A DNA stretch of 64,000 nucleotides from Chloroflexota bacterium (lineage in GTDB: Bacteria; Chloroflexota; Anaerolineae; UBA1429): contig DAIPBO010000012.1 of assembly GCA_036774405.1 (NCBI GenBank), forward strand, positions 18,645-82,644, written 5' to 3'. Position 1 is the first letter of the stretch, and the number at the start of each line of letters is the position of its first letter. The notes beneath the pieces were generated by a model. The model did no database searches. It saw only the letters and a program-made list of their open reading frames with translations, and was not told the DNA's origin. A program made the translations under genes and the position numbers. Of this stretch, positions 3,496-31,841 are shown piece after piece.

Positions 3496-3525
3496 TTGAC
3501 GCTCATCTCGCCAGACGGCTATAAT
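3496..3525 (+). promoter_or_regulatory. Sigma70-type promoter (TTGACG, 18-nt spacer, TATAAT) driving the CHAT-NTPase cassette
   Basis: TTGACG at 3496..3501 and TATAAT at 3520..3525. Followed by a leader with GAAGGAG RBS and the ATG at 3562. Confidence 0.5.
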
Positions 3526-3561
3526 CCGGCCCGAAGAGGGCTTACGAGTGAGAAGGAGCCG

Positions 3562-5841
3562 ATGCTTTATTTGAGCCTGGACCTGCGCGTCTCTGACTGG
3601 GACCCTGCCTCCCGGAGCGCTCTGGTCGAGGTGCTGAACTCGCCTGCTGGCGAGGCGCCACCGCAGCGTGTACGCCTCGAGATCGACCCGGCGCGGCAGG
3701 GCGAGCGGCTGCTTTACACCGAAGGCAACGCGCAGCGCCTCGGTGAGCAGCTCTGGCAGAGCATCATGGTGGGCGAGATTCGCGATGCCTGGAGCCGTAG
3801 CTATCAGCGCGCTATCGATCGCCGCCGCGGCCTACGCCTGCGCGTACACAGCGATGACTGGCGCTTGGCGCAGCTGCCCTGGGAGCTCGCTTATGATCCC
3901 GCGCGACAGGAATATCTGGTGTACGACCGTCGCTTGTCGGTGGTGCGCTACGCGCGCATACCCAGCCCGCAGCCGGAGCCTGTGGCAACCGGTCAGCTGC
4001 ACGTGCTGCTGGTGGCCGCCTCTCCTCGTGATCAGGCGCCGCTCGATTGGGAGCGAGAGATTGAGCTGCTGCAGATAGCCCTGCAAGAGCTGGTGGACGA
4101 GGGGCGCATTGTGCTGAGTGTGTGCGAGCACGCCACGGCGCAGCGGCTGCAAGACCGACTGATGGAGACCATGCCCGAGGTGGTGCACTATGTAGGGCAT
4201 GGCGAGTACGATGCCACGCGGCAGACTGGTGCGCTGCTGGTCGAGACCGCCAACGGCGAGTCGGCACGCCTAGAGGCCCATGCTGTGGCGCGCCTGCTGT
4301 GCCGCTATCGCACGCAACTGGTCTTTCTCAACGCCTGCGACACGGCCCGCGGGCAGGCCATGGGTCTGGCGGCGGCGCTGATGCGCGGCGACATGCCCGC
4401 AGTCGTGGCTATGCAGTGGCCCGTCAAAGACGATGCCGCCATGCAGTTTGGGCGGGCGTTCTATCGCGGCATCTCGCACGATCTGACGGTGGATGAGTGC
4501 ATGTCTGAGGGGCGCCTGGCCGTGAGCACCGCCGGCGGCGAGCCTGCCGACTGGGGAGCGCCGGTGCTGTTCATGCGCTCACTCTCGGGTAACCTGTGGG
4601 TGCCCAGCGGGCAGTCATCCGCCTCGCAGGCCGCAGGTGCATCTGTCGTGACGGCTACAACGCAACCGGCGGTCGTTGGGGGTGAGAGCCGCTTTCTCAC
4701 GGGCAGGCCTTTGCGCGCAGGCCAGGATGCCGGCCTGATGCTACGACGCGATGAGCTGGCGCGGATACTCAAGCGCGCGCGGCTGCCAGCCGTCTCGCAG
4801 TATATCGCTGTGCTGGGCTCGCAGTACAGCGGCAAGACCACACTGCTGTTGCAGGTCAAAGATGCGCTGCAGGCCGAGCAGGCCTGCCTGTACTGCGACC
4901 TGGGCGTGCTGCACGATGCTGATCTCACCACCTGTTGTCGCCACCTCGCCTTTGAAGTCGCGCAGCAACTTGGGGCCCGACTGACAGCCAGGCAGGGCGG
5001 GGCGCTGCGCCGTCTTTCGAGCAGGATACTTGGTCAGCCCGCAGTGAGCGCCAGTCTGCTGGCCGAGGAACAACTGGCGCGCGTGCAGACGCCCGAAGAG
5101 CTGGTGGGGGTGCTTGAGGCCCTGTCGGCAGCCAGCCCCAGCGCGCGCATCACGCTGCTGGTTGACCAGGTAGACCGCCTGCCCGAAGATGTGGCTGTGG
5201 CCCTGCTGGGGGCTCTGCGCAGCATGTTGTTGACGGCACGCTGCGGTGGCAGCCCTCTGGCCAAGTATTTGGTGGTGTTGGCGGGCTCGTTGCGCTTGCA
5301 GGGTTGGCTTAACAGGCGCAACTCGCAACCTGGCTCGTTCGAGCGGCTGTATCTGGGTGAACTCGATGCCTGGCAGGTGGCGGGCGCGCTGGGTCAGTTC
5401 AGCCGCCTGGGCGTGCCCGTCGACGAGCAAGCGCCGCGCCTGGTGCTCGAGGCGACCGGTGGCCACCCCTACCTGACCATGCGGCTGTGCGCCTGGCTCG
5501 AACGGCTGCAGCCGGCAAGCATAGACGCGTCTGCCATCGAAGACGCGGTGGCCAACATGCTGGCCTCGGATGGACACCTGGCCGAGACGGTGGAGCGTGT
5601 AATGGCCGATGCCGGCCTGCAGGCCAGCATGCAAGCGGTGTTGGCGGGTGAAAGCCTACGCTTTGTTCGCAGCGACGCTGCGCTCTCGGCGCTGGAGCTC
5701 ATCGGCGTCATCACGCCGACCACGCCTGTGCGTGTGCGCAGCCGCCTCTATGAGCTGGCGCTGCGCGCCAGGTTGCCCAGGGCCACGCCGGCCGCCAACA
5801 CTGTTGCGGCCACCATAGCCCCCAAAGAGGAGACGAGATGA
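3562..5841 (+). CDS. CHAT-domain (caspase-like His/Cys) protease fused to a STAND/AAA-type P-loop NTPase
   Basis: The N-terminal region has the LPWELAYDP motif typical of CHAT proteins. The caspase-fold core has His in EVVHYVGHGEYD and Cys in LVFLNACDTARG. The C-terminal half has Walker A GSQYSGKTT, Walker B ITLLVDQVDRL and a GxP-like TGGHPYL. Start is set at the ATG with GGAG RBS (3562) rather than the track's 3496. Confidence 0.75.
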   Translation: MLYLSLDLRVSDWDPASRSALVEVLNSPAGEAPPQRVRLEIDPARQGERLLYTEGNAQRLGEQLWQSIMVGEIRDAWSRSYQRAIDRRRGLRLRVHSDDWRLAQLPWELAYDPARQEYLVYDRRLSVVRYARIPSPQPEPVATGQLHVLLVAASPRDQAPLDWEREIELLQIALQELVDEGRIVLSVCEHATAQRLQDRLMETMPEVVHYVGHGEYDATRQTGALLVETANGESARLEAHAVARLLCRYRTQLVFLNACDTARGQAMGLAAALMRGDMPAVVAMQWPVKDDAAMQFGRAFYRGISHDLTVDECMSEGRLAVSTAGGEPADWGAPVLFMRSLSGNLWVPSGQSSASQAAGASVVTATTQPAVVGGESRFLTGRPLRAGQDAGLMLRRDELARILKRARLPAVSQYIAVLGSQYSGKTTLLLQVKDALQAEQACLYCDLGVLHDADLTTCCRHLAFEVAQQLGARLTARQGGALRRLSSRILGQPAVSASLLAEEQLARVQTPEELVGVLEALSAASPSARITLLVDQVDRLPEDVAVALLGALRSMLLTARCGGSPLAKYLVVLAGSLRLQGWLNRRNSQPGSFERLYLGELDAWQVAGALGQFSRLGVPVDEQAPRLVLEATGGHPYLTMRLCAWLERLQPASIDASAIEDAVANMLASDGHLAETVERVMADAGLQASMQAVLAGESLRFVRSDAALSALELIGVITPTTPVRVRSRLYELALRARLPRATPAANTVAATIAPKEETR

Positions 5842-19920: not shown

Positions 19921-20928
19921 TTAGCGGTTGCGGCCGCGCACCATCTTGAGCCAGCGCAGGATGTTGCGCGTCACCTGGATAGCGTAGGCCGCGTCGTCGT
20001 GTGTGGGGCGCAGACCGCGATGCACGATGTCGTTGCGCAGGTCGTTGATCTCGTTGAACCTGAGCCAGAGCTCGGGGTTGTCGCGTTTGAGGCTAAAGCC
20101 CGAGTAGCGCCGCAAGAGCGCCTCGAGCTTGGATGTGAGGCTGCGTGTTGAGAGGGCATGATCGATCTCGCCATCAGCGAGCCCCTGCCGCTGCATGCCA
20201 TAGGTCAGCAGCATCGAAACGGCCGCCTCGATGGTGGTGTGGCAAGTGGCGATGGCCTGCCGTGGAAAGCGTTGCGCCAGGGCGCGTTCGGCCTCGATCA
20301 AGAGGTCGTCTGCGAGGCCAACAGGCTCCTCGTGGGCCAGCCCCAGGCGCAGCTCCTCATACCACTGCTCGCTCTCACGGGCCAGGTCAAAGCGCTCACC
20401 CAGGGCTTCTTCTTGCTCGATCAGTTCGGCCTGTAGAGGGTCGGGTGTCAGCACTGTGCCATCTTCAGAGCGCACGGTGACGTCGATATCGTCGCGCCGC
20501 AGGTCAAACACGTGGTAGAGCTTGGCCTTTCCGCGCACGACGGCGACAAAGTTGTTGAACGCGGCCAGCGATTCGGTGGCAAAGGCATCGCGCTGCGCGT
20601 CAAAGCGCTCACTGCGCCAGTCGGCTCCAGGGGTTAGGGACTGAACGATGGTGCCGCTCGAGTTGATCGAGCCCAGCGACGCGATGTTGCGCCCAAACAC
20701 CACGCGTAGCACAAAAGGGTGGTCGTACCAGCTGTACGAGGTCAGCCCCTCGGCCTGATCTTGTGCAGCCAGCACCCGCGTTGCTGCGGGGTGCGAGGCG
20801 ATCGTCAGAAAGGGCGTGTAGGTCTGTGCCGTGACGTGCACCGTTTTGATGCCGTAGACGGTGTTGACCTCGTAGGGGCCACCGGCGACGCCAAATGGCA
20901 GACTGGCAAATGCAACCAGGGCGGGCAT
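19921..20928 (-). CDS. Hypothetical protein with C-terminal HEPN-like motif (R-x4-H in NDLRNDIVHRG)
   Basis: 335 aa. The last ~120 aa are helical and end with EINDLRNDIVHRG (Rx4H). The N-terminal ~200 aa matched nothing I recognise. Confidence 0.55.
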   Translation of the reverse strand: MPALVAFASLPFGVAGGPYEVNTVYGIKTVHVTAQTYTPFLTIASHPAATRVLAAQDQAEGLTSYSWYDHPFVLRVVFGRNIASLGSINSSGTIVQSLTPGADWRSERFDAQRDAFATESLAAFNNFVAVVRGKAKLYHVFDLRRDDIDVTVRSEDGTVLTPDPLQAELIEQEEALGERFDLARESEQWYEELRLGLAHEEPVGLADDLLIEAERALAQRFPRQAIATCHTTIEAAVSMLLTYGMQRQGLADGEIDHALSTRSLTSKLEALLRRYSGFSLKRDNPELWLRFNEINDLRNDIVHRGLRPTHDDAAYAIQVTRNILRWLKMVRGRNR

Positions 20929-22264: not shown

Positions 22265-22807
22265 CTAGCGTTGACGAGTGCTGGCCACGCCAACGGAAAT
22301 GATGGCTTTGAGCAGGTCTGCCACGGCAAAGGGCAGCACGCCTGCGCTGAACGCCAGCGGCATCGACCCGAGATAGAATGCGAGCCAGGCCGTTCCTGCA
22401 GCATAGATGGTCGCCAGGCCGGCCAGGGCGCCCAGGGCGCGGCCAGCCAGTGGCACACTACTGCGCTGTGCCAGCCAGCCCGCCACAAAGGCGGCAGCAG
22501 GAAAGGCAAGCAGGTAGCCCGCGCTGGGGCCAACAAAAGCCGCTGGCCCAATCAGCCCAGAGGCTGTGGCAGGGGCGCCCAGCAATACGGCTTGGAGATA
22601 GGCAAGCTGCGCCAGCAACCCGTCTCGGGGGCCGAGCAGCAGCCCGCTCAGCAGCACCACCAGCACCTGCAGGGTGAGGGGCACCGGCGAGAGTGGCGTC
22701 AGCACATTGATGCGGGCGCTCACAGCTGTGGCGCCTGCAAAGAGCGCGATGCTCAATACGCGGACCCAGGGGCGATAGTCGGCACGATGGAGAGCGCGTG
22801 TCAGCAT
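22265..22807 (-). CDS. bioY: BioY-family biotin transporter (ECF S-component)
   Basis: BioY pattern (hydrophobic, LTPLSPVPLTLQ...). Start is at the internal ATG (MLTRAL), preceded by GGAGG and a TTGACA-16-TATAGT promoter in the 22808..22896 gap. Confidence 0.8.
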   Translation of the reverse strand: MLTRALHRADYRPWVRVLSIALFAGATAVSARINVLTPLSPVPLTLQVLVVLLSGLLLGPRDGLLAQLAYLQAVLLGAPATASGLIGPAAFVGPSAGYLLAFPAAAFVAGWLAQRSSVPLAGRALGALAGLATIYAAGTAWLAFYLGSMPLAFSAGVLPFAVADLLKAIISVGVASTRQR

Positions 22808-22896
22808 AGAGACCTCCGAACAGCTAACTCGAACGACACATTTCCGGTCACTATAGGGATAAGGCATACGCTGTCAAAAGGCGACGCTCGTACGGC

Positions 22897-24213
22897 TCAG
22901 CCAGCGAAAAAGATGCGCTGTATGTCCTCACGGGTGATCTTGCCCGAGGCCAGCCGGTTGCGCAGCTCGTTCATCTGCTGTACCAGCGGGATGGCCTCGA
23001 GGGGGCTGCGATGTTCTTCAAAGGGAGGCAACTCGGCTGGCAGCTCGACGGCATCGCCGTGCAGCAGCGCCCTGACGGCATCGATGGCCTTGCCGGTCTG
23101 CACAAGCCCGTTGTGATTTTGTTCGACATAGTAGGTGGCGACGCCCGGCACGCGTGCAGACCAGAGCGGCACCTGCTCGTCGCCCGAGTCGGGACCGGTG
23201 TCATGGCGTTCGGGCAGCAGACGCAGCTCACCATCGTCGGTCTGACGACGCACGGCAGCAACGGTCTCATAGTGGCAGCCAGCGATCTCAATCTGCTCGA
23301 TATCGGGTTGGCAGCCCAGCACCAACTCATGAAAGCGCCTGGCCTCGCTCAGCAGGTCGCCGCGCACCGGTGGCCCCTGCCATTCGGTCTCGTCGTAGGG
23401 GTTCCAGTCCAGCGGGTAGGGGCGATCGCCCATGAACAGCTCGGGTGGCGGTGGCAAGAGCTGGTAGGCCGAGGGCAGGCCGAGGGCAAAGCCGAGCACA
23501 TCGTTAGCGGGGTTGAGGTGCTTGATGATGCGTGCGGGCCGCGCTTCACCGGCAAAGAGCAGGGCAGCCTCAGCGGCGCCCTGCAACGGTGTGCCCAGCA
23601 TGATCACCCGTTCGACGCGTCGCTCGGCTTCATGGGGATGTTTGGCCAGATAGGCACGGGCCACCAGCCCGCCCATACTATGGCACACCAGCGTAAAGCG
23701 TCGCTCGGGCTCGGTCAAAGACCAGCGCTCGAGCGAGTGGGCGAGCGTATCGGCGGTCCTGAGCACGCTGTGTCGCCAGTCGTAGGGGAACTCGTAGAGG
23801 CGCGTCTCGCGAGCAAGCGCCAGAACGATCTGTAGATACGACAGCTTCTCTACCCCGAGTGGCACAATGTCGACATCGGGCACGCGGTCGTCGACGCCAT
23901 CGTCGTCCAGATCAAGCAGGTTGAGGTGACCCTCGAGCAGCAGCCGTGGGTTGGGCCACAGCAGCGCGCTGATCCCACGAATGCTCGTCAGTTGTGAGCC
24001 CATGATACCAGGGATGAACACCGTCGCATTGCGCGGGTGTTCGGTCGAGGGGCGGTCGAGCAGGGCGCGTATCTCGGCAGTCTCGCGCTCGCTCATCACC
24101 AACTCCATCCACAGGTTGGGCTTGATCATAGCCAGTCCACGGCTCAGATGCTCCGCCGGGATTGACTCTAGCTGAGCGATGACCCACTGAGCGATGCTAT
24201 TGGCAATGTCCAT
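22897..24213 (-). CDS. LCAT-like (lecithin:cholesterol acyltransferase family) alpha/beta-hydrolase / putative lipase
   Basis: 438 aa. YDWR motif (EFPYDWRHS), nucleophile elbow CHSMGG, and a downstream acid/His region. The start ATG at 24211..24213 nearly overlaps the stop of the upstream STAND gene (24216). Confidence 0.75.
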   Translation of the reverse strand: MDIANSIAQWVIAQLESIPAEHLSRGLAMIKPNLWMELVMSERETAEIRALLDRPSTEHPRNATVFIPGIMGSQLTSIRGISALLWPNPRLLLEGHLNLLDLDDDGVDDRVPDVDIVPLGVEKLSYLQIVLALARETRLYEFPYDWRHSVLRTADTLAHSLERWSLTEPERRFTLVCHSMGGLVARAYLAKHPHEAERRVERVIMLGTPLQGAAEAALLFAGEARPARIIKHLNPANDVLGFALGLPSAYQLLPPPPELFMGDRPYPLDWNPYDETEWQGPPVRGDLLSEARRFHELVLGCQPDIEQIEIAGCHYETVAAVRRQTDDGELRLLPERHDTGPDSGDEQVPLWSARVPGVATYYVEQNHNGLVQTGKAIDAVRALLHGDAVELPAELPPFEEHRSPLEAIPLVQQMNELRNRLASGKITREDIQRIFFAG

Positions 24214-24215
24214 GG

Positions 24216-27200
24216 TCAGCCTCCAGAGGCGGCGCCCTGGGCGGTGGTGTTGCCTGTGGGCTGCCTCTCGAATATCTCGGGATGATCGATGCCATGTAGA
24301 ACCGTTCGCACCACAAGGGCCGCCACATGGTCGAGCTCGCTGTACGCCTCAGGCCCGCGGGCGCCGCCCAACACAGCCCAGAGGGCATGGGCGAGGGCGC
24401 GCCCCTGTGCGTCGGCCTCCAGTTTCTCCACGGCCTCGGCCGTCTCTGCCGAGAGCGCAGCGCCTCTGCAGGCCTCGGCGATGGCACGGATGAGGCCAAA
24501 CCATTGCTGCACAACCGCCGCCCCTGCTGGCGAGAGGGCAAAGGCGCGCTGCGTGCGTTGGCGCCAGGCAGCCTCTTGCTCGGCGTCGCCGCTGGCGTGG
24601 GCCACGCGTTGCAGCAGATGATAGATCTCCCAGGCGACGGCATTCTGCCCGCCCGCCTGACTGATCTCCAGGGCGCGCGTGGCATGCACAGCTGCTGCGG
24701 CCGGCTCGCTTTGGCTCAGATAGTGCTCGGCCAGCGCATGCAGCGCGCCGACGACCGACTGGGGCTGGTTAGCCTCACGGAAGGCCTCGACGGCCGCATG
24801 TAGATCGGCGACGGTGAGTTCGCCCTGTTCAAGCCGTGCGTGCAGCCGAGCTCGGCGCAAGAGCAGATTGCCGCGCACAGAGGGCAGTTCTGCGGCGCTG
24901 GCCACAGCCAGGCCATGGCCCAGGGCCTCGATGGCCGCCGGCGCGTCGTGTCGCCGAGCCTCTTGCAGGGCAGCCACCTGTTCCCACAGGCTGCACAGAG
25001 CGGGCCAGGCGCTGGCCTTGCTGAGGCTTTCGGCAGCCTGCTCAAACTGTAGAAGCGCGGCGTCGGTCTCCTCATGGGCTGCCATAGCGCCGGCCAGTTG
25101 GGCCTGCAGCAGGCCGACCAGTTCGAGATCGTCGAGCCGCCGCGCCAGCTCAAGCCCGCGCTGGGCGGCCTCTTGGGCAGCCTCTGGCTGGCGCGCCAGC
25201 AACAGCGCCTCGCCCAACTGACGCCAGGCCTGGGCCTCGGCCAGAGGCGCCTCGGGCAAGCTGCGCGCCTGGCTGAGCAGCGCAATGGCCTGCCTCAGGG
25301 TGGTGATCACCACGTCGGGCCGCAGTGAGGCGGTGAGCACCATGGCAAACAGCTTGAGGGCCAGGCCCTGGTCTAGCGTGGCCTCGGGGGCAGCGTAGGT
25401 CTGTCCCTTGTCGGCGGTGATGCGCTTGATGAGCCCCTGCAGCATGGGCGCCGCCTGATCGACACGCCCAGACTGTAGCAGGCGCTCGGCCTGGCCCAGC
25501 ACAAACCGCACCGCGGCACGGCTCAGAGGGCCCTCGGCGGGCACAGCGGTCGCAGTGGCCCTGTCGATGCGGCGTCGCAGGGCGGCGACTGTGTCGCCCA
25601 GGCCCGCCGTGACGAGTGCCGAGCCCGCCGCCTGCACCAGCTCGGCGGCCAGGTTCAGCTCGTCGGTCTCGATAGCCAGGGCAACTGACTGCACAATGTT
25701 GGCCAGCTCGAGACGCAGCAGACGCCGCGCAAGGCCCGGTGCACGTGCCTCGCCGCGTGGTAACCAGCCTAACAAGCCCAAAGTGCTGTTGGCATAGGGT
25801 TGGGCCAGCGCCTGCCGCTGGCGTAACGTGGCCTGCCGCGCCAGATGGCCCGCCAACGCAGGATGCATACTGATGCGGCTCAACGTCAGCCCCTGCACGG
25901 GCTGCTGGCTGAGCAGCCCCGCCGCAGCCAGCAGCGCCTTGAGGCGACTCCATGGCTCGGGCTCGAGGCCGAGCGTGCGCAAGGTGGTCGGCTCGAGAAA
26001 GCCCTGTGGATAGAGCCCCAGGCCGTTGACCGCCAGCCGTTCATCGGGCGAGAGGTCGTTGAGCAGGAGGTCGAGAGCGAGCTCTCCGCCTCGCTCCGTC
26101 CAGCGCGAAGCCTGTTGCACGGCATGCGGCAAGGTGCGCTCGATGGCGGCGCGTAAAGCCTCGTCAGAGCTGGAGCGCAGACGTGCTGCTGCGCATCGGA
26201 GCACCAGCGGGCTATCGCCCAGCTGCTGGCTCCAGGCGGCGGCTTCTTCTGTCGAGGCGCCGGCGTATGCCTGCAGCAGGGCCACACCCTCCTGGTTTGT
26301 CAGAGCGGGCAGCACTTGTGCAACCGGCTCGAGTGAAGCGAGCTCGGCCGGCATGCTCGCTCCATCGGCGATCAGCAGCAGGCGACAGCCGGGCGAGTGC
26401 GCCAACTCACGGGCTAGCGCCAGCAGCCGGCTGCGTGCGTCGTCGTCATAGTTCAGGTCGTCGCGGCTGAACGCGGCCTCGACATTATCCCACAGCAGCA
26501 GGGTGCGGCTTTGCGCCAGGGCCTCGTGCAGGCGGGCGCTCGTTTCAGGCGTGCCAGGTGTGGCGTCGGGCCCCACCAGCTGCCAGGTGAGATCGTGGAC
26601 GAGTGCATCAGGCAACAGTCCGCCATAGAGGTTGGTGTATACGATGCGGTCAAAGGTGGCAGTGCGCATCAGCCAGCGTGCCGTGGCGGCGGCGAGGGCC
26701 GTCTTGCCATGGCCCACTGGCCCATGCAGGCAGACGACGCGCGCCTCGGGGGTCAGCAATGCCGCCTCCAGGGCGGCACGCTGGAATGCGCGCCCAACAA
26801 ACGGGGCATCGGGGCTTGACGGCAGGCCGCCAGGGGTTGGCTGGAGCGCCAGCCGTTGCCAGGCCGGGCGCAGATCATCCTGCGTAAAGGGTACCACTCG
26901 CGCCACACCACTGGCCTCGGGTTGAGGGTTCGCCAGTGGGCGGCCTTCGGCGGCGCCCAGTGCCCAGCGGGCTGCACTGGTGTTGGGGGCGAGGTCACGC
27001 TGGACGCTCTCGCAGGCCAGACCGAGCGTCGTGCCCGCCAGTAGCTCGCTGAACAGCGTCTGCAGGGCGCCCTGCAGAGCCGACGGAGCCATATCTGCAG
27101 CGAGCCACAGGGTGGCAAGCTCATCAGGCAAAAAGGCCTCTCCAGACACCCAGATGACGAGGCCTACCTCGATGCCCGCGAGCATCTCCGTAAGGGCAGC

Positions 27201-27461
27201 GGCGCCCTCAGGCCAGGCCGGCCACGCCTCGCCAGAAGGCACCAGCAGGCAGAGCATGTCGATCACCGGCTCTGGCGTCTGCAAACGTTTGGCCAGGGCC
27301 TCTCTGCTTGCCGGGCGTAGCCACTCAATCTCGATCTGGCCGCCCTGCGCCTCAGCGGCAGAGAGCACGGCCGCAGCGCGATCATAGGCCAGCAGATCGG
27401 CTTGAGATGAGACGTCGCTCGAGGCGATCAACAGGCGCAATGACGGGCGAGGTTGAATCAC
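24216..27461 (-). CDS. STAND NTPase: N-terminal CHAT-like (dyad-less) domain, NB-ARC-type P-loop domain, C-terminal TPR-like helical repeats
   Basis: 1081 aa. Walker A VVCLHGPVGHGKTALA, Walker B LLLWDNVE, and a GxP-like DSPLVL. The C-terminal ~600 aa are Ala/Leu-rich repeats. Confidence 0.8.
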   Translation of the reverse strand: MIQPRPSLRLLIASSDVSSQADLLAYDRAAAVLSAAEAQGGQIEIEWLRPASREALAKRLQTPEPVIDMLCLLVPSGEAWPAWPEGAAALTEMLAGIEVGLVIWVSGEAFLPDELATLWLAADMAPSALQGALQTLFSELLAGTTLGLACESVQRDLAPNTSAARWALGAAEGRPLANPQPEASGVARVVPFTQDDLRPAWQRLALQPTPGGLPSSPDAPFVGRAFQRAALEAALLTPEARVVCLHGPVGHGKTALAAATARWLMRTATFDRIVYTNLYGGLLPDALVHDLTWQLVGPDATPGTPETSARLHEALAQSRTLLLWDNVEAAFSRDDLNYDDDARSRLLALARELAHSPGCRLLLIADGASMPAELASLEPVAQVLPALTNQEGVALLQAYAGASTEEAAAWSQQLGDSPLVLRCAAARLRSSSDEALRAAIERTLPHAVQQASRWTERGGELALDLLLNDLSPDERLAVNGLGLYPQGFLEPTTLRTLGLEPEPWSRLKALLAAAGLLSQQPVQGLTLSRISMHPALAGHLARQATLRQRQALAQPYANSTLGLLGWLPRGEARAPGLARRLLRLELANIVQSVALAIETDELNLAAELVQAAGSALVTAGLGDTVAALRRRIDRATATAVPAEGPLSRAAVRFVLGQAERLLQSGRVDQAAPMLQGLIKRITADKGQTYAAPEATLDQGLALKLFAMVLTASLRPDVVITTLRQAIALLSQARSLPEAPLAEAQAWRQLGEALLLARQPEAAQEAAQRGLELARRLDDLELVGLLQAQLAGAMAAHEETDAALLQFEQAAESLSKASAWPALCSLWEQVAALQEARRHDAPAAIEALGHGLAVASAAELPSVRGNLLLRRARLHARLEQGELTVADLHAAVEAFREANQPQSVVGALHALAEHYLSQSEPAAAAVHATRALEISQAGGQNAVAWEIYHLLQRVAHASGDAEQEAAWRQRTQRAFALSPAGAAVVQQWFGLIRAIAEACRGAALSAETAEAVEKLEADAQGRALAHALWAVLGGARGPEAYSELDHVAALVVRTVLHGIDHPEIFERQPTGNTTAQGAASGG

Positions 27462-27571
27462 TGTTCCTCCGCGTGCATAGTGGCTATTGACCCGATTATA
27501 CCCTGTGCGACGGCTTTGGTCAGCATCAGACCTTGGGTATACTATAGGGTGCTCATTCTGGAGGTACCCGC

Positions 27572-30464: not shown

Positions 30465-31841
30465 ATGGATTGGCACGAGGCGCACGGCCTGCTGAGCTCG
30501 ATGGGCGCCGACCATGTGGTGACGTTGCCCCAAGCCGCCACGCCGCGGCGCATCGCAGAGTGGGCGGCGGCGTTGGCCAACGGTGAAGGCGGCGCTGTGG
30601 TGTTGGGCGCCACGAGCCCAAGCTGTCCTCTCGAAGACGGCGCTGCGGTGCTAGAGCGCGCCCTGGATGCGCTGTTGATGTGCGAGCCAGCACTGGTGGC
30701 GCCCGTGCCGGTGTTTGTCGGCAAAGAGGGCGCGCCCGAGGCAGTGCTTGTGCAGATACCGGCCGGGCTGCGACACGTCTATGCGGTGGATGGACGCTAT
30801 CTGGTGCGGGCAGGGGCCCGTGTGGCACCCCTCAGCAGCCTGGCGCTCAAGCAGCTGCTGGTGGCGCGCGGCCAGGTCAGCTACGACGCCGAACCTCTCC
30901 CTGGGGCCTCGTACGATGATCTCGATGGTGAGGCGATTGCCGCTTATCTGGCGCGCATCGGCAACCCCCGTGGCCTGCCTGTTAACGAACTGCTGCGACA
31001 GCGCGGCTGCTTGTACGGCGCCGAGGCCAGGCCGACCGTGGCGGGCGTGCTGCTCTTTGGCCGGCAACCCGATCGCTGGGTGCGGTCCAGCGAGATTTTG
31101 GCCGTGCGCTACGCCGGTCAGCGCATGAGCGACCGGTTTGTGCGCGAAGACATCCGTGGGCCGCTGCCCGAGCAGATCCGCCGTGCCGTGGCCTTTGCTT
31201 TGGGCAATATGCGCCGTGCCGTCGAACTGAGCGGGGTCGAGCGCCTGGAGACGACCGAGTACCCCGAGGAGGCGGTGCGCGAGGCCATCGTCAACGCTGT
31301 GGCGCACCGCGACTATGCCCTGGCTGGTGACGGTATTCGACTGTTGCTCTTCAGCGATCGGCTCGAGGTGCATTCGCCGGGACGCCTGCCCGGGCACGTG
31401 ACGGTGGCCAACATCCGGCAAGAGCGCTGCTCGCGCAATGAGGTGATCGTGCAGGTGCTGGCTGACCTGGGGTTCATCGAGCGGCTGGGCTATGGCATCG
31501 ACCGGATGATCGACCTGCTCGCCGACGCTGGGCTGCCGCCACCCGAATTCCGCGAGACGGCCGGCGGCTTTGTGGTCACCCTGCGCAGTGCTTCCGGGCA
31601 GCTCCTCGAGGAGCCCGAGCCCACCGCTGTGTGGCGGCATGCGGGCTACAACGCACGCCAGGCGGCGCTTTTGACCTATCTCGACACCCACGAATATGTC
31701 AGCAACCGCGAGTATCGCGAGCTGTGCCCCGACGTCAGCGCCGAGACGTTGCGCCGCGATCTGGCCGATCTGGTGCGGCGTGGTGTGTTGCTGCGCATTG
31801 GCGCCAAACGCGGCACCGTGTATGCTCGCCGCCAACCATGA
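30465..31841 (+). CDS. Putative DNA-binding regulator with Schlafen-like AlbA_2 and HATPase_c_4 domains
   Basis: 458 aa. The pattern is that of proteins often annotated as 'ATP-dependent DNA helicase RecG C-terminal domain' or 'divergent AAA transcriptional regulator'; the C-terminus looks like a winged helix. Confidence 0.65.
   Translation: MDWHEAHGLLSSMGADHVVTLPQAATPRRIAEWAAALANGEGGAVVLGATSPSCPLEDGAAVLERALDALLMCEPALVAPVPVFVGKEGAPEAVLVQIPAGLRHVYAVDGRYLVRAGARVAPLSSLALKQLLVARGQVSYDAEPLPGASYDDLDGEAIAAYLARIGNPRGLPVNELLRQRGCLYGAEARPTVAGVLLFGRQPDRWVRSSEILAVRYAGQRMSDRFVREDIRGPLPEQIRRAVAFALGNMRRAVELSGVERLETTEYPEEAVREAIVNAVAHRDYALAGDGIRLLLFSDRLEVHSPGRLPGHVTVANIRQERCSRNEVIVQVLADLGFIERLGYGIDRMIDLLADAGLPPPEFRETAGGFVVTLRSASGQLLEEPEPTAVWRHAGYNARQAALLTYLDTHEYVSNREYRELCPDVSAETLRRDLADLVRRGVLLRIGAKRGTVYARRQP

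Follow-up and report, generated by a model that had tools for sequence, protein, structure and literature searches.

Caspase-superfamily domains in the systems described by Kaur (2020; PMC7159879) always have a neighbouring gene for an α/β-hydrolase; inactive caspase domains are common, and dominant-negative or peptide-binding roles have been proposed for them. α/β-Hydrolases are also the predicted lipid-hydrolysing effectors in STAND-linked systems of the AP-ATPase type (Kaur, 2021; PMC8195603). A caspase-like protease, which in other cases can be fused to a STAND sensor, activates an α/β-hydrolase zymogen by cleavage at two arginine-glycine (R|G) sites, and the cells are killed (Evans, 2025; PMC12642450). 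In fungi, the sesB-like lipase/NB-ARC/TPR arrangement is among the commonest NLR architectures (Dyrka et al., 2014; PMC4986451). Here we analyse a related locus in a 64,000-nucleotide stretch of DNA from a Chloroflexota bacterium of the Anaerolineae (contig DAIPBO010000012.1; the whole stretch is called the window below). It consists of two genes:

24216..27461, reverse strand: STAND NTPase gene, 1081 aa, GTG start (open reading frame, ORF)
22897..24213, reverse strand: LCAT/LPLA2-fold lipase gene, 438 aa, ATG start (ORF)

An earlier note on this DNA had placed both ORFs, with their lengths, correctly, and had taken the combination of a STAND with a separate lipase to be undescribed. This is not so: caspase-superfamily proteins with α/β-hydrolases, in part also with STANDs, have been reported (PMC7159879, PMC8195603, PMC12642450), as has the sesB-like arrangement (PMC4986451). 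The pair is a variant of the known theme of caspase/CHAT, α/β-hydrolase and STAND, and a parallel to the fungal sesB-lipase NLRs. What is distinct is that the CHAT domain is dead and in part lost, that the hydrolase is of the LCAT/LPLA2 type, that the system is divided between two genes and includes an NB-ARC-TPR switch, and that the locus is fixed and vertically inherited. We read the locus as a two-gene, probably translationally coupled module of an NLR-like switch and its effector, and put the probability of this at roughly 0.5. An immune or cell-death role of the pair is plausible.

The likeness to the caspase/CHAT and α/β-hydrolase modules of multicellular bacteria lies in the caspase-superfamily domain, the neighbouring hydrolase gene and a protease that can be fused to a STAND. 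Both the modules and the window pair are enriched in filamentous or multicellular phyla, and the hydrolase of the modules is a predicted or demonstrated death effector, which is the role predicted for the window lipase. As in LcHydrolase-type systems, the hydrolase is found beside or fused to a caspase-superfamily protease, here by way of the CHAT-derived domain of the adjacent STAND and of the relatives of the lipase. By contrast, no active partner protease is found next to it: the CHAT domain of the adjacent STAND is without its catalytic dyad, and some orthologues dispense with it. The window locus differs further in lying in a syntenic housekeeping neighbourhood. With respect to LcCaspase-LcHydrolase, the hydrolase differs as well, being a 438-aa protein of the LCAT/LPLA2 type and ~145 aa longer than LcHydrolase (~33 kDa), which appears to belong to another hydrolase family.

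The fungal sesB-like NLRs share with the window pair an α/β-hydrolase lipase (PGAP1/SERAC1-related), NB-ARC and TPR repeats. The fungal proteins carry the lipase as an N-terminal fusion and have hypervariable TPR repeats, whereas the window pair is encoded by separate genes in the reverse order, its TPR repeats are not hypervariable, and its STAND carries a pseudo-CHAT domain. Avs and other bacterial proteins related to NLRs that act in defence resemble the window pair in having an N-terminal output domain, a STAND NTPase and a C-terminal repeat sensor, but there is no match here to Avs, bNACHT or other PADLOC models beyond the weak P-loop-level matches given below, the effector is a separate gene, and there is no defence island.

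The STAND protein and its degenerate CHAT domain

From its N-terminus, the STAND protein is made up of a pseudo-CHAT domain, an NB-ARC-like NTPase, a winged-helix/helical region, TPR repeats and a conserved C-terminal domain, encoded as follows:

26964..27461, reverse strand: degenerate CHAT (caspase-superfamily) domain, aa 1-166, catalytic His and Cys gone (hhalign)
26262..26789, reverse strand: P-loop NTPase core, aa 225-400, with Walker A GPVGHGKT and Walker B LLLWD
25827..26261, reverse strand: helical and winged-helix region, aa 401-545, with GxP-like and MHD-like motifs
24642..25826, reverse strand: TPR-like helical repeats, aa 546-940, modelled as regular helix pairs (predicted local distance difference test score, pLDDT, ~90)
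24288..24641, reverse strand: C-terminal helical domain, aa 941-1058, more highly conserved than any other part of the protein

The NTPase and the TPR repeats had been recognized in the earlier note, which overlooked the degenerate CHAT domain of ~166 aa at the N-terminus. The motifs that it quoted are all in the translations, namely GPVGHGKTALA (~247-257), LLLWDNVE (~320-327) and GDSPLVL (~414-420) in the STAND, and YDWR (144-147) and CHSMGG (177-182) in the lipase. The NTPase active site is intact: eight orthologues all keep Walker A residues G247, G250, G252 and K253 and Walker B residues W324 and D325. GDSPLVL is a GxP-like motif, which in the orthologues reads GGNPLAL, and P534, A535 and L536 of the MHD-like motif 'MHPAL' are invariant in the orthologues; both motifs can be read as NB-ARC-like.

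The label of a 'classic NB-ARC' protein needs some qualification. In a single-sequence Pfam search NB-ARC (PF00931) scores 18.2 bits, short of the cut-off of 23.5 (E 0.0016), and the match is confined to the first 100 positions of the model; neither AAA_22 nor TPR_12 reaches its threshold, the latter match being weak. The STAND class as such is borne out by other searches. A profile of the orthologues matches consensus TPR proteins (E 2.5e-18), the TPR region of AfsR, and PH0952, and it reaches NB-ARC/TPR proteins with N-terminal CHAT, TIR, caspase, adenylate cyclase, SARP or XRE outputs; the remote homologues reached in this way carry PF00931. The AlphaFold model of the whole protein (pLDDT 78) has ~20 helix pairs across aa 546-940, and in Foldseek it matches the STAND-TPR protein PH0952 (6mfv, E 2.8e-13), Apaf-1 (3shf, 1.2e-7), CED-4 (8jo0) and ZAR1 (6j5t). 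Membership of the STAND class, as an NB-ARC-like NTPase with TPR repeats, is well supported by motifs, profiles and predicted fold.

The C-terminal domain (aa 941-1058) has no Pfam match and no family assignment. Its identity to six orthologues is 84, 68, 67, 68, 44 and 51%, against 76, 54, 51, 53, 26 and 32% for the TPR region. A further homologue search, started from the STAND alignment, gave no additional orthologues and only remote NB-ARC/TPR proteins, the word index being saturated by TPR proteins. A transcription regulator of the MalT/AfsR type was considered and rejected: Pfam finds no DNA-binding output domain (LuxR HTH, SARP/BTAD or XRE) in the 1081 aa, as the earlier note had also observed, and the N-terminus is derived from CHAT. 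In two orthologous loci the STAND is present as two ORFs (L065 5372-7997, 442+440 aa; L067 4563-7891, 886+241 aa), which could be due to assembly frameshifts or to pseudogenisation; in L065 the lon gene is also broken, into three ORFs.

The CHAT domain was identified by hhalign, in which the alignment of STAND orthologues matches P0126, a 1510-aa CHAT-AAA_22-TPR protein, over residues 6-1063 (Prob 100, E 6.6e-41), with STAND residues 6-200 falling on its CHAT domain. Opposite the catalytic 'HFDGHG' of P0126 the window protein has 'LLVPSG', and opposite 'LLDACQ' it has 'IWVS-G' (window 'IWVSGE'); the catalytic His-Cys dyad is absent from every STAND orthologue. The domain is followed by a disordered linker (aa 167-211). 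It also aligns with the CHAT domains of the family of lipase-CHAT fusions described below (hhalign E 1e-4, Prob 56, 189 columns). The Pfam CHAT model has no match in the STAND protein, a search of PDB sequences with the pseudo-CHAT profile gave nothing relevant, and hhalign against four CHAT domains from lipase loci L002 and L003 (see below) gave only a weak local match (Prob 9%). The pseudo-CHAT is the least conserved domain of the STAND protein and is missing entirely in three orthologues (L005, L065 and L076/P0125), which on the present alignments corresponds to loss in at least two lineages. Judged from these comparisons, the STAND descends from CHAT-NB-ARC-TPR proteins. Its CHAT-STAND relatives with an active CHAT include P0126 and P0128, both on contigs too short to show gene neighbourhoods. 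Because the catalytic dyad of the window's CHAT domain is missing, and some orthologues have no such domain at all, the sequences exclude control of the lipase by its own STAND through proteolysis in cis.

Proteolysis could instead act in trans: the lipase would be latent until cut by an active CHAT or caspase from another locus, for example by the CHAT-AAA_16 protein at 3559-5841 of the window, and the dead CHAT would be a cFLIP-like decoy or dominant-negative regulator. That gene, 18 kb from the pair, looks active ('HYVGHG', 'LNACDT'); dominant-negative and peptide-binding roles are among those proposed for the common inactive caspase domains (PMC7159879); and cleavage at R|G activates a caspase-associated hydrolase (PMC12642450), while an R79-G80 dipeptide is near-invariant in the lipase. 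However, the pseudo-CHAT is absent in three orthologues and is therefore not needed, LcHydrolase appears to be of another hydrolase family, the R-G dipeptide of the lipase may be structural, and nothing ties the distant CHAT gene to the pair. We consider this explanation improbable.

The lipase and its relatives

In Pfam the lipase scores 38.9 bits with LCAT (PF02450), over the gathering cut-off of 21 (E 8e-10). PGAP1 is above threshold too, and DUF7379 is below it (25.9 against 33 bits). The lipase profile matches LPLA2/PLA2G15 (E 6e-7) and LCAT in the PDB, and the AlphaFold model (pLDDT 83) matches LPLA2 (4x90, E 2.9e-14, TM score 0.55/0.64), several LCAT entries and the type VI secretion phospholipase Tle4 in Foldseek. 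Its earlier assignment to the LCAT family can therefore be kept. The catalytic triad, placed by alignment, is encoded on the reverse strand:

23677-23679, reverse strand: codon of Ser179
23179-23181, reverse strand: codon of Asp345
23113-23115, reverse strand: codon of His367

S179 (in HSMGG, the GxSxG nucleophile elbow), D345, H367 and the YDWR motif are invariant in an alignment of 31 lipase sequences, so that the active site is intact. The Ser-Asp-His triad is common to LCAT, lysosomal phospholipase A2 (PLA2G15) and Tle4, which are the best structural and sequence matches of the lipase core. Identity to them is only 15-17%, and the window lipase differs from them in being bacterial and in having helical extensions specific to its family, at the N-terminus (aa 1-55, modelled with low confidence) and at the C-terminus (aa 410-435). 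It is probably cytoplasmic; no signal peptide was evident in the translation, which was read by eye without a predictor. By sequence and model the protein is predicted to be a catalytically competent phospholipase or acyltransferase of the LCAT/LPLA2 type.

Many members of the family carry the JGI label 'pimeloyl-ACP methyl ester carboxylesterase', but the idea of a biotin-related esterase was rejected: the neighbouring bioY has a promoter candidate of its own, and the orthologous locus L075 is without bioY. Within the standalone family, R79 is near-invariant and G80 invariant (codons ~23972-23977), and the pair is not conserved in lipase-CHAT fusions. The dipeptide resembles the R|G motif at which caspase cleavage activates LcHydrolase, a likeness that may be coincidence; no second conserved R-G was seen in the lipase family.

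There are ~276 full-length homologues of the lipase, 40-78% identical and nearly all from Anaerolineae or Chloroflexota metagenomes. Their length is constant (~435-445 aa), with one copy per metagenome-assembled genome (MAG) in the scans. Beyond this family, an exhaustive search with the lipase profile gave 17,034 relatives, 461 of them at E <= 1e-30. Judged by eye, ~45% of the best 150 representatives are proteins of 1000-1200 aa with the lipase domain at the N-terminus, and among the best 150, 40 of 44 long outgroup relatives that were sampled have a C-terminal CHAT domain. These lipase-CHAT fusions (~1000-1200 aa; P0281, P0289, annotated 'CHAT domain-containing protein', and P0310) are the closest outgroup relatives of the window lipase (E 1e-40 to 1e-54), and both have YDWR, HSMGG and the catalytic triad. 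The fusions are single polypeptides with an active CHAT, its catalytic His and Cys being near-invariant, and have no NB-ARC-TPR part, whereas the window system has two genes, a dead CHAT and an added NTPase switch. The fusion P0310 (L077) is encoded in a cluster of genes for TIR, nSTAND1-WD40, lipase-CHAT, TIR, SLOG-like and DUF559 proteins.

Lipase homologues encoded by separate genes are also found next to STAND and protease genes. The most elaborate example is a run of six genes in L002 (2540-16746), coding for two CHAT-NB-ARC-TPR proteins, an LCAT-like lipase, a PGAP1/DUF7379-like hydrolase, a papain-family (C1) protease and a TPR-CHAT protein. Both CHAT-NB-ARC-TPR genes keep the His and Cys, and the second ends 3 nt before the lipase homologue; from its gene content the cluster appears to be a conflict system with several proteases and several hydrolases. 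In L003, SIR2_2 and nSTAND1-WD40 genes are divergent from the lipase gene, with a caspase and a Macro-AAA_16-CHAT gene downstream of it, and in L036 a divergent nSTAND1 gene adjoins the lipase homologue. In an Acidobacteriota MAG (L012, 8420-15469) the gene for a 913-aa fusion of a trypsin-like protease and an LCAT-like lipase precedes those for a 434-aa protein and a 1026-aa STAND (AAA_16/NPHP3_N). The association of lipase, CHAT and STAND is thus recurrent.

It might be supposed that a single conserved STAND accompanies the whole lipase family. This was rejected, the STANDs of L002, L003 and L036 being not detectably related to that of the window; BLASTP and hmmsearch with the window STAND against ORFs beside distant lipase homologues found only L005. 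Because these STANDs are unrelated, the lipase seems to behave as a module that is recruited by different sensors. A further match, in Lysobacter (L015), is uninformative, being a PGAP1/DUF7379 hydrolase beside YcaO and LytTR genes.

Conservation of the pair and its possible function

The lipase gene is immediately downstream of the STAND gene in all eight STAND orthologues with readable downstream DNA. The gap between the two genes is 2 nt in the window, L074 and L075, -10 nt in L076, 3 nt in L065, 33 nt in L066, 109 nt in L067 and 61 nt in L005. The order in which Lon and queD are divergent from STAND, lipase and bioY is syntenic across Anaerolineae, over a range of lipase identity from 78% to 47%. 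L074 and L075 share a longer stretch of gene order with the window, of ~15 kb, which also takes in MutL, PspC, udk, an RF-1-domain gene, a gene for a 335-aa protein and L25; L075 is without bioY. The pairing is also kept where the flanks differ (L005, L066 and L067). The junction in the window is as follows:

24211..24224, reverse strand: STAND/lipase junction, with GGAGG at 24224-24220, the stop TGA at 24218-24216, CC, and ATG at 24213-24211

It reads GGAGGC-TGA-CC-ATG, with a gap of 2 nt between the STAND stop and the lipase ATG, and the overlap of stop and start that had been stated is not there. The GGAGG is 6 nt ahead of the ATG and within the 3' end of the STAND gene. This layout, with the ribosome-binding motif inside the upstream gene and the short gap, suggests translational coupling.

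Because the locus is syntenic across Anaerolineae, its sequence context indicates that it is vertically inherited in a fixed housekeeping position and is not a defence island. The conservative gene order of the lineage could by itself make neighbours of the two genes, and in close relatives it is indeed the whole ~15-kb neighbourhood, not the pair alone, that is syntenic. Mere adjacency is nevertheless very unlikely: the spacing of 2-3 nt with an internal Shine-Dalgarno sequence is kept across genera, the pairing persists where the flanks differ, and the lipase family is found independently beside other STAND and CHAT genes and fused to CHAT. Comparative genomics thus supports well a functional link between STAND and lipase, as the earlier note had supposed, both from the pairing in 8/8 orthologues and from the STAND and protease neighbours and CHAT fusions (40/44) of the lipase family. 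The co-occurrence that it had called for holds in one direction: the eight STANDs with readable downstream DNA all have the lipase, whereas many lipase homologues have no STAND neighbour and are found with PMT_2/GT4 genes or in other contexts, which is in part the outcome that the note had said would refute it. It had named the flanking genes correctly, as bioY (PF02632) and queD/PTPS (PF01242) by Pfam, but they are not incidental, given that the whole neighbourhood is syntenic in relatives. Its proposal of an antiviral system like Avs is not supported, in view of the lack of a PADLOC match and of a defence island, the syntenic and vertical locus, and TPR repeats of no extra variability.

Several of these observations weigh against an NLR-like switch and effector as well. 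A syntenic locus of the Lon-queD/STAND-lipase-bioY kind is atypical for immune genes, and there is no defence-island or mobile context around the pair. In PADLOC-DB 2.0 the lipase has no match and the STAND only weak P-loop-level matches (E >= 0.002). Identities calculated per domain show no excess of variation in the TPR region over the NTPase. An adaptor (EAD/Death-like) or amyloid motif shared by lipase and STAND was looked for, and none was found. A subclade of lipases 47-52% identical to that of the window (L032, L034, L035, L071, L072 and L073) lies 8-61 nt downstream of PMT_2 (GT39/ArnT-like), GT4 or GT2 glycosyltransferase genes, often with RNase J next and with no adjacent STAND, and further homologues (L004, L006-L008, L010 and L011) are in unrelated contexts. 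Since the lipase of the subclade is intact without an adjacent STAND, the enzyme can evidently work and be tolerated in the absence of the window's STAND. In a neighbour-joining tree of low resolution the STAND-linked lipases are paraphyletic relative to the PMT_2-linked ones, which tentatively suggests that the link to STAND is ancestral to the lipase clade and was later lost. For the PMT_2-linked members themselves, a role in envelope lipid or glycolipid metabolism is hinted at. A scan of STAND and lipase against NCBIfam gave nothing informative.

Much of this would fit a housekeeping lipid enzyme, namely an LCAT-like acyltransferase or phospholipase of the membrane or envelope lipid metabolism of Anaerolineae, with the STAND-TPR protein as its lineage-specific, signal-dependent and non-immune regulator or scaffold, resembling metabolic STAND switches such as MalT but without a DNA-binding output. 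The constant length and single copy of the lipase, the vertical locus amid Lon, queD, bioY, udk and L25, the tight linkage (8-61 nt) of the STAND-less subclade to PMT_2, GT4 and GT2 genes, the lack of a PADLOC match and the sensor region that is not hypervariable all agree with it. What speaks against it is that the nearest relatives outside the family are overwhelmingly lipase-CHAT fusions in conflict-type neighbourhoods, that the STAND descends from CHAT-NB-ARC-TPR proteins, and that the phospholipase toxin Tle4 is among the structural neighbours; moreover, the genes flanking the pair in the window include none for lipid biosynthesis. On balance we regard a housekeeping enzyme as the less likely explanation, though the strongest of the alternatives. 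If it is right, an immune-type STAND has been co-opted for the regulation of lipid metabolism.

If the locus is a switch and effector module, we envisage that it descended from the caspase/CHAT protease and α/β-hydrolase death modules of multicellular bacteria, in which a sensor-linked protease activates a latent hydrolase. A ligand would bind at the TPR/C-terminal region of the STAND and lead to nucleotide-dependent opening and oligomerisation of the NTPase. The STAND oligomer would then recruit, release or allosterically activate the lipase by physical interaction, and the activated lipase would attack membrane phospholipids, its presumed substrate, with regulated cell death or membrane remodelling in the filament as the outcome. 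A module of this kind would be a prokaryotic, genetically split counterpart of the abundant and uncharacterised fungal sesB-lipase NLRs. It would also mean that protease-hydrolase death modules can drop the protease chemistry and keep the NTPase-lipase partnership, that there is a second, non-proteolytic way to license a lipase effector, and that CHAT/STAND conflict systems have repeatedly used lipases of the LCAT/LPLA2 type as an effector domain, there being hundreds of fusion proteins.

A more specific version, which we offer as speculation and think unlikely in this full form, is an NLR-like death switch that has been 'domesticated' into the core genome of filamentous Anaerolineae. Here an NB-ARC-TPR protein with a pseudo-protease, or without any CHAT, would control an LCAT-type phospholipase non-proteolytically, by scaffolding or allostery, and would serve cell death or membrane remodelling within filaments and not mobile phage defence. 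Such a switch would be a bacterial parallel both to the control of death effectors by pseudo-caspases (cFLIP-like) and to the fungal sesB-lipase NLRs.

Expression signals and other genes in the window

Three further candidate signals were noted around the pair:

27466..27470, reverse strand: Shine-Dalgarno GGAGG of the STAND gene, 4 nt before the GTG (sequence reading)
27495..27523, reverse strand: sigma-70-like promoter candidate upstream of the STAND gene, CTGACC-17-TATAAT (consensus match only, 10/12)
22850..22877, reverse strand: strong sigma-70-like promoter candidate, TTGACA-16-TATAGT (consensus match, 11/12)

The first promoter candidate falls in the 110-nt divergent intergenic region that is common to the STAND gene and queD-lon. 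The second is directly past the lipase stop and marks the 3' boundary of the two-gene unit. On this reading of the promoter candidates, STAND and lipase are probably a bicistron, and bioY is probably transcribed from its own promoter, because the second candidate is right after the lipase stop. This candidate overlaps the first ATG of the 200-aa bioY ORF (22265-22867), and the real start of bioY is probably an internal Met at ~22807. The G+C content of the STAND gene is 0.67-0.70, against 0.62-0.65 for its neighbours; since the locus is syntenic, this probably reflects Ala/Leu/Arg-rich repeats and not recent transfer.

The CHAT-AAA_16 gene mentioned above (3559-5841, forward strand; the ORF is listed from a TTG at 3496) codes for a protein of ~760 aa with CHAT (Pfam E 2e-33) and an AAA_16 P-loop NTPase but no TPR. 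The putative catalytic His is in 'HYVGHG' and the Cys in 'LNACDT'. The gene lies between rpiA and genes for a branched-chain amino-acid ABC permease, and its product could be a trans-acting protease or part of a separate system.

The 335-aa protein encoded at 19921-20928 (reverse strand) has a weak HEPN (RiboL-PSP) match (E 0.008) and weak CARF-HEPN matches in PADLOC. Its gene is syntenic in L074 and L075, between the RF-1-domain gene and L25, and is therefore a conserved lineage-specific gene and not a mobile element. Adjoining lon, at 30465-31841 (forward strand), is a gene for a 458-aa protein with HATPase_c_4 and a DeoR-type HTH, which is also found by lon in L074; it has domain-level PADLOC matches to pAgo-associated models (E 7e-19).

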